A stretch of DNA of 64,000 nucleotides from Simkaniaceae bacterium. GTDB lineage: Bacteria; Chlamydiota; Chlamydiia; Chlamydiales; Simkaniaceae. The notes below the pieces were generated by a model. The model saw only the letters and a program-made list of their open reading frames with translations. It searched no databases and was not told the origin of the DNA. A program made the position numbers and the translations under genes. The DNA is taken from the NCBI GenBank assembly GCA_018062315.1, contig JAGOSM010000001.1, forward strand, positions 12,529-76,528, in the 5' to 3' direction. Below are positions 33,650 through 37,175 of this stretch, piece after piece (within the stretch, counting starts at the first letter, position 1; each line of letters starts with the position of its first letter).

Positions 33650-33737
33650 GGAAGAGTGGCAGAGTGGCCGATTGCGTCTGTCTTGAAAACAGAAGTCCCG
33701 CAAGGGTCCGTGGGTTCGAATCCTACCTCTTCCGCCA
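33650..33737 (+). tRNA. tRNA-Ser(UGA), copy 1, CCA encoded
   Basis: Acceptor GGAAGAG/CTCTTCC, anticodon stem TCTGT/ACAGA with loop CTTGAAA (anticodon TGA), long variable arm, T-loop GGTTCGAATCC, discriminator G then CCA. Confidence 0.92.
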
Positions 33738-33753
33738 ATGTAACGAATTCGAA

Positions 33754-33781
33754 CCCTTACCCTCCTCCAGGAGGGTAAGGG
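33754..33781. repeat. perfect 12-bp-stem hairpin just 3' of tRNA-Ser copy 1
   Basis: cccttaccctcc tcca ggagggtaaggg. No flanking T-tract, so it is not a canonical terminator. Confidence 0.7.
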
Positions 33782-34048
33782 TATCGATATTACTGTGGGC
33801 TACATAATATGCCCGGCTCTGAATCAACCGATCCCCTTCCACCACACACTCGCTAGGCACCGGCTCCATCTCTATACTTCCCAATAAATTTTTTAACGCC
33901 AAAGCCGCCATCTTAGTATCCCCACCCAAGGTCTCATGCAGCTTATCCAACCGATGCTCCATCCATTCTTTGGCCGGTGTCTTAAAAGCCCCCTTCCTCA
34001 GGGAATTTGCATGAAAAATCACTTGACTCCCAATATCTTGAGTATCGA

Positions 34049-34630
34049 GTAGGATGGGGCTATTAAACCCCCGTCCTCTCACACCACCGTACGTACGGAA
34101 CCGTATACGGCGGTTCATGATCACTATGACCTAGCTAATACCATCTTTTTCATAGATAGATATCCCATTCCTTCGATCACATTATTTGACAAAGCTTTGT
34201 GCATGCCTGGAGTTATAGCCATTCTCCATGGTCCTTTATTAGCATATGCGGTGTTCTTGGCAGTACGTTTCTTGAGTCCTAGTGTTCTCAAGCGTTTATA
34301 CCGTGTTCTGCCGGTCTTCCATTGCCTCCAAAGAATACCTCGTATCTTGCGCCTAATCCATCCATCTAGGTCCTCAAAGATGCCTTGTACTTCTGCTAGT
34401 CCAAAATAATTAGCCCACCCTCTGGTGATTGGCATAATTCGTTTCCGGATGCTCTCCTTCACTTCACTGCCCCTCATCTTCTTTGTGATGCCTTTTATTT
34501 TATCCTTTAAGCGTTTAATTCGGCTTTCGTGGACCGCGATCTTGTAGTTTCCTTTCGTCTTAATGAAAGTAAATACTAAAAATTTGCGATTCTCAGGATT
34601 ATCTACTGCACTTTTCTGCTCGTTGGAAGG
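34049..34630 (-). mobile_element. 5'-truncated group II intron remnant (RT/maturase 3' part plus domains V and VI)
   Basis: Maturase-like ORF, then a domain V-like hairpin (complement of 34084-34113, CCGCCGUAU...GUACGGUGG with an AC bulge). A domain VI-like helix with a bulged A follows, ending ...CCUAC at 34049. Confidence 0.7.
34124..34630 (-). pseudogene. group II intron reverse transcriptase/maturase, N-terminally truncated
   Basis: The frame reads ..SNEQKSAVDNPENRKFLVFTFIKTKGNYKIAVHESRIKRLKDKIKGITKK MRGSEV..ITRGWANYFGL..LDGWIRRKIRGILWRQWK. The finger/palm (YADD) region is missing. Confidence 0.7.
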
Positions 34631-35535
34631 ACGGCACTAGAAAACTCTTCCCCGTCTCTTTTATCTCTGACTCGGGGCTGGCGAACATTGATCGGCCCAA
34701 TGCCCGTGAGAATATCACGCTCAGGGAGATAACCATTTCTGGTGACTAGGCGGTTGTTCATCTCCTCCTTCATCTCAACGATAGTATTCACAAAGCCAGG
34801 AACTGTTAGATTTCGTTTTCTTGCACCAAACTCACTCCCATTATCTGTTTGGATCACTACTTCTTGTAAATTCATTCCAAAGGCCTTCAAGTGGCCAAGG
34901 TAAACTTCGGTTAGCATTTCAGAGTACTGTTCACTATATTCATTAGAAAAAGCTACTATCGTAAAGCCACTTTTCACATCTCGAATTGTATACTCATACT
35001 TTGGAAGAGACCCTTCTTCCATTTGAGGCGAATAGTTAGAGATATCATAGAGGTGCTTAACATCTTCCTGGTGATGAGTGAGACTTTTATATTTGGCCTT
35101 TACCTCTCTTAGATCATTTTTTTTCTGATATTTTTTTCGATGCTTACGCAGGAGTCCTTTTTCTTTTAATATCCGGTAGATCGCTCCTTCTGAAGCCTTC
35201 AATGAGGGATTAAAATACTTCAGCCGCTTTGGTCCATAGCAGGGCATTTCCTTGCGTTTTTCGATAATTTGCTCTTCAACTTCTATCGAGGTTTTAAGAG
35301 GGCTATTGAGGGGGGCTCGACTCTTATTTTGCAGCCCTGTTGTCCCTTGTGCTTCAAATCGTCTGCGCCAAGTTTTGATTGTATTTTTGCTACAGCCATA
35401 TTTTCGTGCTGCTGGCTTATTTCCATGAATCTGTGCATATTGAACAATCTTTTGACGGAATATTATTTGTTCCTTAGAATCCCTATTAAACATACACATC
35501 CCATACGCTGTGGTTGAATTACACTCTGACTTCAT
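34603..35535 (-). pseudogene. chimeric ORF: IS481-like transposase (HTH plus partial rve core) fused to an internal IS256-family transposase fragment
   Basis: N-terminus AARKYGCSKNTIKTWRRRFEAQGTTGLQNKSRAP and core DVKHLYD...IQTDNGSEF lack the final catalytic region. From EMNNRLVTRNGYLPERDILTGIGPINVRQPRVRDKRDGEEFSSAVLP the sequence is IS256-like. Confidence 0.7.
34644..34766 (-). repeat. 123-bp IS256-derived segment, inverted copy A
   Basis: Reverse complement matches 36943-37065 with a single mismatch (gacgGgg vs gacgAgg). Confidence 0.85.
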
Positions 35536-35834
35536 AGCTCCCTCTTTAGTTGTTTTTGGTTAATTAACTAAATGAGTTATAAAGTCTTTTTTTTTAAATT
35601 ATTACTTTCGGCGGCGCGCCCCCCTAGGGGGTGGCCCTTTTCTTTTAGTTATTAAGAAATATTTTTAAATACCTATGAAACTTCTCCTGGTAAATCTCCC
35701 CGAAGCACTTTAATCTTATTTCCTTTACTAGCTCTAGGAGGTCAATATCTAACATTATAGTTCCGATTTAATTAAATTCCTTGATTTTTAAAATGCATTT
35801 AATGTATTATATAGAAAGTATAAAACGAGGTTTT

Positions 35835-36710
35835 ATGTCAGTATTTTCAATTTCAGACGAAGTTTCAATTAATCAATTAATACCTTTATTCTCCTTCCGC
35901 ACCTTAAATCAATTTAGTGAAACATGCTCGGGATATAAAGCCCTGGCAGATCAGGTGTATTCGAAGCTACTAACTGATATAACCCCTTTATTAAATGAGT
36001 ATACATGGCTTAGTGAAATTACGGGTGATACTCCAGCAATAAGAATAGGCTCACTATACAAATCTCTCTTTCGAGAAGGTTTTGATATCATAGATCTATC
36101 TCCAACAAGAGAATCTATAATAAATATTTTAAATAGAGTTGATTTAACAAGAGCTCATCCTGATTATGATATACAGCTTATGTTTATGTATCACCAGATC
36201 CCCGATGCGGATACAACCATTCTGGCAGGGGCTCCAGTAGAACAATCTCGTAACATTCGTAGATGGATGGATGCGAATCGAGCAGCTTTAGCTGAAGTAA
36301 CAACACTGAATTTATCTGGGTTATCTTTAACTACAGTTCTTCACGAACTCGAAATCTATTTCCCTTCCCTACAAACTTTAAACCTTAGAGCTAACAGACT
36401 CACGACGGTTCCTGATTTCTCTCATCTTCCCTCCCTACATACTTTAGACCTTGAAAGTAACAGACTCACGACGGTTCCTGATTTCTCTCATCTTCCCTCC
36501 CTACATACTTTAGCACTCTCAGATAACCGGCTCACGACGGTTCCTGATTTCTCTCATCTTCCCTCCCTACACACTTTACAACTTGCATATAACCAGCTCA
36601 CGACGGTTCCTGATTTCGCCCATCTTCCCTCCCTACACACTTTACTCCTTCAAGATAACCAGCTCACGACGATTCCTGATTTCTCTCGTCTCCCTCTCTT
36701 CGAGATATGA
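35835..36710 (+). CDS. leucine-rich-repeat protein, possible F-box-like N-terminus
   Basis: Five consecutive 22-aa repeats LxTLxLxxNxLTTVPDFSHLPS. Start chosen at MSVFSISDEV (ATG 35835), preceded by GAGG. Confidence 0.75.
   Translation: MSVFSISDEVSINQLIPLFSFRTLNQFSETCSGYKALADQVYSKLLTDITPLLNEYTWLSEITGDTPAIRIGSLYKSLFREGFDIIDLSPTRESIINILNRVDLTRAHPDYDIQLMFMYHQIPDADTTILAGAPVEQSRNIRRWMDANRAALAEVTTLNLSGLSLTTVLHELEIYFPSLQTLNLRANRLTTVPDFSHLPSLHTLDLESNRLTTVPDFSHLPSLHTLALSDNRLTTVPDFSHLPSLHTLQLAYNQLTTVPDFAHLPSLHTLLLQDNQLTTIPDFSRLPLFEI
36369..36698 (+). repeat. five 66-bp near-identical tandem repeats (coding, LRR units)
   Basis: Units start at 36369, 36435, 36501, 36567 and 36633. The core ctcacgacggttcctgatttctctcatcttccctccctaca is repeated almost exactly. 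Confidence 0.9.
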
Positions 36711-36791
36711 TCGAAAGTTGTGGATGAAAGACTAAAAGGAGCATATCCTTCTTGATTTTTCCAGGCAGGAAAAAATCAAACAAAAAGGAAT

Positions 36792-37057
36792 ATGCTCATG
36801 AAGAACTTTACCCTTCCGCAAGTTAAAAATCCATCGGAGATTCCAACTCGTTCTATTCTCGAAGAAGTGATTCGAGATGGAGCCAAGAGAATTCTCCAGG
36901 AAGCAATTGAATATGAAGTCCTTGAATATGTACAGAAATTCAAGGAGATGAACAACCGCCTAGTCACCAGAAATGGTTATCTCCCTGAGCGTGATATTCT
37001 CACGGGCATTGGGCCGATCAATGTTCGCCAGCCCCGAGTCAGAGATAAAAGAGACGA
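36792..37057 (+). pseudogene. IS256-family transposase, N-terminal fragment truncated at the tRNA-Ser copy 2 boundary
   Basis: MLMKNFTLPQVKNPSEIPTRSILEEVIRDGAKRILQEAIEYEVLEYV...RNGYLPERDILTGIGPINVRQPRVRDKRD matches the N-terminal pattern of IS256/mutator-type transposases. The frame runs straight into the tRNA. Confidence 0.7.
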
Positions 37058-37065
37058 GGAAGAGT
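36943..37065 (+). repeat. 123-bp IS256-derived segment, inverted copy B
   Basis: Partner of 34644-34766. Its last 8 nt (GGAAGAGT) are also the first 8 nt of tRNA-Ser copy 2. Confidence 0.85.
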
Positions 37066-37142
37066 GGCAGAGTGGCCGATTGCGTCTGTCTTGAAAACAG
37101 AAGTCCCGCAAGGGTCCGTGGGTTCGAATCCTACCTCTTCCG
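37058..37142 (+). tRNA. tRNA-Ser(UGA), copy 2, no encoded CCA
   Basis: 85 nt identical to 33650-33734. Followed by AAT rather than CCA and then a canonical terminator. Confidence 0.9.
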
Positions 37143-37153
37143 AATAACTAAAA

Positions 37154-37175
37154 GGCTCCACCGGAGCCTTTTTTT
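37154..37175 (+). terminator. rho-independent terminator after tRNA-Ser copy 2
   Basis: ggctcc acc ggagcc followed by a run of seven T. Confidence 0.8.

Follow-up and report, generated by a model that had tools for sequence, protein, structure and literature searches.

The window analysed here is a 64-kb stretch of DNA from an uncultured member of the Chlamydiia. In this window a tRNA-Ser(UGA) gene is called twice, by both ARAGORN and Rfam, and the two copies lie in direct orientation around a 3.3-kb insert. The insert begins, next to the first copy, with the remnant of a large serine recombinase (LSR), and ends, next to the second, with a fragment of an insertion sequence (IS). The features of the locus are as follows, in window coordinates.

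32010-33188, plus strand: MFS transporter gene, left chromosomal flank (32010-33533 overall).
33129-33533, minus strand: conserved gene orf134, also in the left chromosomal flank.
33601-33629, plus strand: promoter-like TTGATT-17-TATACT, a 9/12 match, in the chromosomal flank 5' of copy 1.
33650-33737, plus strand: tRNA-Ser(UGA) copy 1, consisting of 85 nt (33650-33734) and an encoded CCA, read as attL.
33723-34007, minus strand: C-terminal remnant of an LSR, about 100 aa, whose TAG stop lies inside the 3' acceptor strand of the tRNA; tblastn relates it to loci L046, L009 and L047.
33753-33782, no strand assigned: perfect hairpin starting 16 nt past copy 1, 13-14 bp, -30.3 kcal/mol, no T-run.
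34044-34115, minus strand: group II intron domains V-VI (the intron 3' end), RF00029 at 44.1 bits against a gathering score of 40, abutting the LSR remnant.
34124-34600, minus strand: C-terminal 95-155 aa or so of a group II intron reverse transcriptase (RT)/maturase, X/maturase domain only, PF08388 GIIM with E=4e-20.
34603-34766, minus strand: IS256-family transposase fragment B, about codons 51-105.
34767-35535, minus strand: N-terminal fragment of an IS481-family transposase, NF033577 positions 2-205/284 with E=6e-27, HTH_28 and HTH_32.
35835-36710, plus strand: gene of a leucine-rich repeat (LRR) protein with an N-terminal domain and 22-aa repeats (66-nt units), PF13855 LRR_8 with E=8e-38.
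36711-37065, plus strand: IS256-family 5' fragment A, with a putative left end and codons 1 to about 91, reading frame starting at 36792, PF00872 and NF033543.
37058-37142, plus strand: tRNA-Ser(UGA) copy 2, 85 nt without CCA, the attR-side copy with the chromosomal 3' flank.
37150-37175, plus strand: intrinsic terminator AAAAGGCTCC-ACC-GGAGCC-T7, -13.9 kcal/mol, between copy 2 and the convergent rhodanese gene.
37276-37563, minus strand: rhodanese gene, right chromosomal flank.

The two tRNA copies are the same at 85/85 nt, and an exact repeat of this length within 64 kb cannot be the product of chance. The identity extends by 0 nt to the left, and to the right it ends after the discriminator G, where copy 1 continues with CCA and copy 2 with AAT. 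The insert is bounded by direct repeats of tRNA sequence, the distal one being of full length and not a partial 3' segment of the tRNA. The outer and inner flanks of the repeat are mutually unrelated, so that four distinct tRNA flanks can be recognized. The initial annotation of this DNA had described an 85-nt repeat with abrupt ends and a CCA encoded at copy 1 and none at copy 2, and ARAGORN, Rfam and the alignment agree with it. The native tRNA-Val of the window has no encoded CCA, like copy 2.

The surroundings of the copies were also largely as first described. The promoter-like site before copy 1 is present; since a promoter scan of the whole region gave 11 sites against 7.6 +/- 3.0 in shuffles, which is not above expectation, this site says little when taken by itself. 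Copy 2 has no promoter-like site of its own. It is bordered by IS256 on the 5' side and by CCAATGTAACG on the 3' side, and the IS256 frame that had been reported to run into it was found as an N-terminal reading frame at 36792-37057. The terminator directly after copy 2 was recovered as well (GGCTCC-ACC-GGAGCC followed by T7, with the folding energy given above). The hairpin after copy 1 is perfect and has no T-tract, as had been stated, while its stem is 13-14 bp and not 12 bp.

The identity of the reading frame that overlaps copy 1 on the opposite strand is central for the interpretation of the locus. Searches of Pfam and PHROGs with this stub alone gave nothing useful, and it was identified only through its homologues. 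The stub aligns to residues 462-560 of the 569-aa protein P0146 with 44% identity and therefore corresponds to about the last 17% of an LSR. P0146 has the domains Resolvase, Recombinase and Zn_ribbon_recom, and an exhaustive profile-free search yielded full-length proteins of 550-600 aa with the same domains. The Resolvase and Recombinase domains, present in the full-length homologues P0146, P0183, P0174 and P0160, are absent from the window, which holds the tail only. The Zn ribbon is found in the longer stubs P0022, P0063, P0050 and P0041, and P0063 also matches the NCBIfam XisF model at positions 286-369. An integrase gene adjoins one att site, in the form of a remnant, and the LSR of the window is non-functional. 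A protein database search with the stub of L046 gave 81 relatives, all of at most 313 aa and many with PF13408 (Zn_ribbon_recom). All 81 of these relatives, and nearly all members beside tRNA-Ser in chlamydial loci, are N-terminally truncated. A scan of viral contigs with the full-length recombinase gave no matches, and a phage origin is consequently not shown.

The position of the stub relative to the tRNA recurs in other genomes. A stub whose stop overlaps the tRNA adjoins tRNA-Ser(UGA) in L046, L009 and L047, where the tRNA follows pheS, and more remote stub fragments occur near tRNA-Ser(UGA) in L054 and L083. In L097 the neighbouring gene is tRNA-Ser(GGA), with the same overlap. In L105 an intact LSR gene overlaps tRNA-Asp alike, with a cargo of a type III restriction-modification system with SNF2 helicase, an XRE regulator and a small open reading frame (ORF). 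LSRs catalyse recombination between attP and attB at a 2-bp crossover. From the arrangement of these sequences we infer that this clade would integrate into tRNA genes and supply the 3' part that is replaced.

Clade members with a frame that extends into the 3' end of a convergent tRNA, whether or not it stops there, were observed at L105 10001-11746, L097 10001-10894 and L098 9923-10701. The tRNAs concerned are Asp-GUC, Ser-GGA and Ser-UGA, and the defence cargo comprises type III restriction-modification with SNF2 helicase, AbiE, Fic and AAA_15.

At the overlap in the window, the tRNA acceptor strand and CCA, in reverse complement, spell the codons W-R-K-R and the TAG stop of the LSR. The recombinase tail (WRKR followed by the stop) has its Trp codon at the CCA of copy 1, and the same holds for L098 and L105. 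The possibility that this CCA marks a retrocopy of a mature tRNA was considered and is ruled out by the same codon assignment. The hairpin past copy 1 sits within the LSR coding sequence (…TLTLLEEGKG…). In L046, L047 and L009 hairpins occur at the same position with different stems (-24 to -32 kcal/mol), and the differences among these stems are, judged by eye, apparently compensatory changes. The hairpin probably serves the rebuilt tRNA as a trailer or terminator, and the LSR stub probably persists because it now forms the trailer of this tRNA.

The outer flanks were compared with those of related genomes. The best relatives of the MFS transporter come from uncultured Chlamydiia, with 66%, 62% and 43% identity, and no genome closer than the 66% relative was found in the collections searched. 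In the 62% relative (L005) the order is MFS gene, orf133, a promoter-like region and the same tRNA, the contig ending at tRNA nt 28. The sequence GCTTGATTTTCATTG... precedes the same tRNA in L005, and the 5' flank of copy 1 is orthologous to this locus. The gene orf134 is kept in relatives (46% identity in L005) and is also called in the JGI contig described below. It encodes 134 aa without a Pfam match and overlaps the 3' end of the MFS gene in antisense by 60 nt. Contig L101, from the same sample as L005, carries a rhodanese orthologue of 72% identity, convergent to a similar terminator, ACTAAAAAGACCC…T9, at the same position; the terminator of copy 2 and the convergent rhodanese flank are orthologous to L101. 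Both outer flanks are collinear chromosomal DNA (L005 on the 5' side, L101 on the 3' side). As each is orthologous in relatives, the 5' flank of copy 1 and the 3' flank of copy 2 once belonged together, as the left and right parts of a single ancestral locus.

The 66% relative is a 7,050-bp contig of JGI 3300059473 (the source of P0002 and P0104), which contains the MFS gene, the orf134 orthologue, a 49-aa ORF and a rhodanese orthologue of 70% identity. Only 561 bp separate the orf134 orthologue (orf132) from the rhodanese gene, with the 49-aa ORF at the position expected for the tRNA, and therefore there is no space for a 3.3-kb insert. The earlier proposal that a single promoter-tRNA-terminator unit was split by integration is in agreement with the flank orthology to L005 and L101, the integrase remnant at copy 1 and this 561-bp spacer. 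In a more distant genome of the SP1CHLAM54 type the MFS locus has no tRNA and the rhodanese gene is not beside a tRNA; for the latter reason this genome is uninformative on the site. A scan of genome contigs with the MFS protein found no confirmed relative, all 600 pattern matches being false. Scans of metagenomes by MFS alignment, and by a degenerate DNA pattern for the invariant WYGFIKFFQAY motif, gave no matches, and since both were empty the JGI contig lies outside the metagenome collection scanned.

It is important to compare the repeat in the window with the repeats in islands that carry a related recombinase. Behind the stub, L098-L100 have no more of tRNA-Ser(UGA) than its 3' half, nt 33-88, which begins in the anticodon loop. 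A further 3' half (nt 33-83) is found in direct orientation at a distance of 5.8 kb. These half copies enclose AbiE and Fic genes, beside a type III restriction-modification system. In L019 a full tRNA is accompanied by a 3' half (nt 33-85) located 668 nt downstream. The usual repeat in this LSR family is about 51-56 nt long, as in classical tRNA islands, and its boundaries suggest a crossover near tRNA nt 33. Because the related repeats are 3' halves, the full length of copy 2 is an atypical feature.

At the left edge of copy 2, IS256 fragment A is the same as fragment B up to 37065 and the same as copy 1 from 37058, so that 8 nt, GGAAGAGT (37058-37065), are common to both. This 8-mer represents positions +1 to +8 of the tRNA and, on the IS256 side, codons 88-91 (GGGGAAGAGTT). 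Fragment B runs on past it as native IS256 coding sequence (…GEEFSSAVLP…), and the composite IS256 N-terminus fits the profiles across and beyond the junction (Pfam positions 19-95, NF033543 positions 6-58). The 8-mer is therefore native to IS256, and copy 2 begins, on its left, at an illegitimate junction of a tRNA with the interior of a transposase gene. This edge is neither the end of an element nor a product of transposition, and it marks a secondary rearrangement. That the identity of the two copies stops exactly at +1 reflects where the microhomology falls. We estimate that about 1-2 matches of 8 nt are expected between a 1.3-kb IS and the roughly 80 nt upstream of tRNA nt 33. At this edge an internal IS256 codon is joined to tRNA +1.

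The initial annotation had further proposed that the element brought with it a full-length tRNA-like att site. In this case integration would at once have given two complete copies, and a later deletion, from inside IS256 to tRNA +1, would have removed the DNA of the element that preceded copy 2. Both copies are indeed complete and identical, the recombinase stub at copy 1 testifies to a former integrative element, and a simple microhomology deletion at GGAAGAGT would yield the junction. However, the islands with a related recombinase repeat nt 33-85/88 only (L098-L100, L019), none of about 90 fetched loci provided a full-length attP, and the coincidence at +1 would still be required. We regard this origin as fairly unlikely.

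A second possibility is that the promoter, tRNA and terminator had been duplicated in tandem before the island arrived. The island would have entered the upstream copy, and a deletion from IS256 to +1 would have removed attR, the first terminator and the second promoter. A single simple deletion at the 8-nt microhomology would suffice. Such an arrangement exists in L071 (JAAKFB010000083.1, a chlamydial metagenome-assembled genome (MAG)), where two units of promoter, tRNA-Ser(UGA) and terminator stand in tandem 1173 nt apart (tRNAs at 5131-5217 and 6304-6390). The 561 bp of the closest spanning relative fit one tRNA only, although this is not certain, and apart from L071 none of the fetched 8-kb chlamydial stretches with this tRNA has two full UGA copies. 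A prior tandem duplication is an unlikely source of copy 2. The second tRNA copy of L071 is degenerate, scoring 38.9 bits against 57.4 bits.

The interior of the insert is, as had been recognized, composed of IS and intron debris, with fragments of a group II intron, IS481 and IS256. Read on the minus strand from 35535 to 33738, the order is IS481 fragment, IS256 codons of about 51-105, maturase C-terminus, intron domains V-VI and LSR stub. On the plus strand it is LRR gene, IS256 5' fragment (codons 1 to about 91) and copy 2. The maturase fragment covers TIGR04416 positions 259-353/353. The intron is 5'-truncated near 34600, its RT domain and RNA domains I-IV being absent, and Rfam gave no other intron RNA match at the gathering score. 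The IS481 fragment comprises the HTH domains and part of the catalytic domain and is fused in frame to IS256 fragment B. A complete IS256 DDE transposase with both terminal inverted repeats is absent, and only two overlapping N-terminal fragments are present. Segments 34644-34766 and 36943-37065 form an inverted repeat of 123 nt with 99% identity (IS256 codons of about 51-91). Because the two fragments overlap over these 123 nt, they come from two IS256 copies. The sole mismatch of this repeat is at 37056 (A vs G), 2 nt from the tRNA junction. The LRR gene is probably 3'-truncated by the IS256 end, to judge from its last repeat, which breaks off (…LP, then LFEI and a stop).

The proximity of an intron RT to a tRNA copy that starts exactly at the mature +1 position suggests a third possible origin, by multi-template cDNA synthesis. 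The group II intron RT would have copied the tRNA, then an IS256 mRNA and possibly an IS481 mRNA, and the product would have been fixed by recombination. Along this route a tRNA transcript would be copied to its 5' end as processed by RNase P, and the cDNA end (the complement of GGAAGAGU) would be re-primed on the IS256 mRNA; the chimera would then recombine with an IS256 copy and with the tRNA half of attR. The RT/maturase remnant lies 2.5 kb away, every junction is internal-to-internal and same-sense, and the fragments form a sense-collinear chain (IS481-IS256-intron-LSR or, in the inverted isomer, IS481-IS256-tRNA). The 3' end of copy 2, however, is not what a mature-tRNA cDNA would have, since CCA is missing and the sequence goes on into the genomic terminator. 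Microhomology deletions among neighbouring dead elements give the same junctions without RNA, and the RT present here is a fragment. Group II intron RTs are known to switch templates to the 3' ends of acceptors and not to internal sites. If true, this origin would represent a bacterial retrocopy of a tRNA and transposase mRNAs, but we consider it very improbable.

The reliability of the assembly at the repeat was also considered. Two Logan short-read assemblies, SRR11088486 and SRR11088391, both carry the two outer flanks. Their left-flank contigs end 28-30 nt into the tRNA, and their right-flank contigs begin 29-30 nt before its end, as expected where a k=31 graph branches at a repeat. The isoacceptor tRNA-Ser(CGA) shares 34 nt at the 5' end and 22 nt at the 3' end (in two other chlamydiae, L015 and L056). 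As the sole cause of the breaks it was rejected, since it fits the 5' break (34 nt shared) and does not fit the 3' break (22 nt). The break on the 3' side therefore indicates a second UGA copy with a different trailer. An artefact, that is, a metagenomic mis-join at the tRNA or IS256 repeat of copies not 3.4 kb apart on one molecule, appears extremely unlikely. In favour of an artefact, the source is a MAG-type contig, its 123-bp inverted repeat and 66-nt tandem repeats are poorly resolved by short reads, and the interior proteins are not found in other assemblies (an exact look-up of the LRR protein gave nothing on record). Against this stand the four distinct tRNA flanks, of which both outer ones are confirmed in two independent runs, and inner flanks that are biologically sensible, since the overlap of recombinase stub and tRNA occurs in other genomes too.

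Taken together, these observations allow us to propose, with somewhat more confidence than doubt, that the locus is a dead LSR island in a single tRNA-Ser(UGA) gene, with attL and attR, which decayed and in which a secondary microhomology event completed copy 2. The ancestral site would be one promoter-tRNA-terminator gene between MFS/orf134 and rhodanese, entered by the island. Copy 1 would be the rebuilt gene (attL), having the chromosomal promoter and 5' part together with an element-derived CCA, hairpin and the last 100 or so recombinase codons. Copy 2 would lie on the attR side and retain the original terminator. During decay a group II intron may have entered the recombinase gene and later been 5'-truncated, pieces of IS481 and IS256 would have been joined internal-to-internal, and the LRR gene would have been clipped.

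Since attR in this family normally holds only nt 33-85/88, the 5' half of copy 2 was presumably added or retained by a secondary event. The route that we favour would be a single double-strand-break repair. The attR 3' half would invade copy 1 via 53 nt of homology, and the invading strand, extended through tRNA nt 32 to 1, would re-anneal to a resected IS256 end at GGAAGAGT.

Several points weigh against this interpretation. The link between the LSR and integration is one of adjacency only, at about eight loci, and the island has no intact integrase or recombination directionality factor. The att sites of LSRs normally share a short core only, as in mycobacterial prophages (PMC10654092), and the 53-nt tRNA half shared here is for this reason atypical. 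With events at the DNA level only, a match placed exactly at +1 would be expected by coincidence in about 1 of 50-100 cases, by a post hoc estimate. The compact locus of the JGI contig is known by gene positions only and has its rhodanese gene flipped, and is no clean empty site. L005 and L101 terminate at or near the tRNA, so that this relative could itself be occupied. The 123-nt inverted IS256 repeats could flip the 2.2-kb segment 34767-36942, which contains the IS481 fragment and the LRR gene. Finally, a composition profile of the interior showed no clear deviation or island signature.

The proposed origin as a decayed LSR island has some consequences. As no functional recombinase is left, the 3.4 kb, for which the initial annotation had proposed excision as a circle, could at present be lost only by RecA-type recombination across the 85-bp repeat. 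Homologous recombination between the copies would restore the promoter-tRNA-terminator unit. An att half would have been turned into a full gene copy via an 8-nt microhomology, leaving two identical copies of an essential gene between which a clean deletion of the island is possible. In addition, an LSR clade that would target tRNA genes (Ser-UGA, Ser-GGA, Asp), with frames ending inside the rebuilt tRNA, would offer conserved landing sites for integrase prospecting; the sites usually linked with serine integrases have short cores and lie outside tRNA genes. The service of the stub as 3' trailer and hairpin of an essential tRNA may explain its persistence in reduced chlamydial genomes.

Other repeated structures were observed at tRNA-Ser loci and elsewhere in the window. 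At least one GC-rich unit of about 130-190 nt, starting GGAAGAG…, stands after the tRNA-Ser terminator in many other Chlamydiae, as at L013 2575-2873, L101 4081-4213 (minus strand), L069 610-737 (minus strand), and L071 5238-5640 and 6418 onwards. Similar unit starts occur in L030, L045, L074 and L082-L084, and none of these is in the window. Part of the tRNA 3' end is included in the units (in inverted form in L071), and in L101 a 36-nt terminator is duplicated, with one copy on either side of the unit. The matches of the units to RtT RNA (RF00391) are of full length but below threshold, 24-28 bits against a gathering score of 45. RtT is a repeat family downstream of E. coli tyrT, and the GC-rich units may represent an undescribed RtT-like family.

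To the right of the rhodanese gene, the window contains two paralogues of about 600 aa and about 51% identity (37560-39440 and 40044-41858, both minus strand), which flank a 181-aa ORF (39497-40042). The protein of 37560-39440, the one of the pair that was scanned, has no Pfam domain. These paralogues may be lineage-specific effectors, since L101 has a PI3/PI4-kinase-domain protein upstream of the rhodanese gene instead. Further on, 42497-42836 and 43132-43471 form a tandem direct repeat with a period of 635 nt and 71-82% identity, covering two adjacent ORFs of about 160 aa that are probably a recent paralogue pair.

The locus can finally be compared with known systems. It is best read as the remnant of a genomic island at a tRNA site, which is a known kind, and the whole-gene second copy is unusual. 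Islands typically rebuild the gene that they enter (PMC12884075). As in the tRNA-gene islands and prophages described previously (Williams 2002 and Islander/TIGER, cited in PMC12884075), the insert is bracketed by direct tRNA repeats, a 3' part is supplied by the element, an integrase stands beside the rebuilt tRNA and occupancy may vary among relatives. However, the repeat in those islands is a 3' segment, while here it is the whole 85-nt gene; the integrase there is a tyrosine integrase, while here it is an LSR of which 17% remains, and the cargo here is almost all IS and intron debris. Mycobacterial prophages likewise combine tRNA attB sites with tyrosine integrases, and the common cores of their serine integrases are short (PMC10654092). 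With LSR integrases of the phiC31, Bxb1 and XisF type the remnant in the window is linked by its homology to the C-terminal tail of proteins that carry Resolvase, Recombinase and Zn_ribbon_recom domains. In contrast to these integrases, the clade found here lies convergent to tRNAs (Ser-UGA, Ser-GGA, Asp), with overlapping stops and tRNA repeats of 51-56 nt.

The intron remnant resembles other 5'-truncated bacterial group II introns in keeping domains V-VI and the maturase C-terminus while the RT domain and domains I-IV are gone. It differs from them in that the truncation is fused to the interior of an IS256 and the 3' exon is a recombinase remnant. Among the Chlamydiae, a similar case is the island Pam100G of Protochlamydia amoebophila UWE25 (PMC548262), which also occupies a tRNA locus and contains transposases, a resolvase and a pair of identical tRNA genes. 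Pam100G, however, is 100 kb long, has tra genes and is bounded by 17-bp repeats, and its two tRNA-Gly genes stand in tandem, 88 nt apart at one end, whereas in the window the two tRNA-Ser(UGA) copies flank the island.

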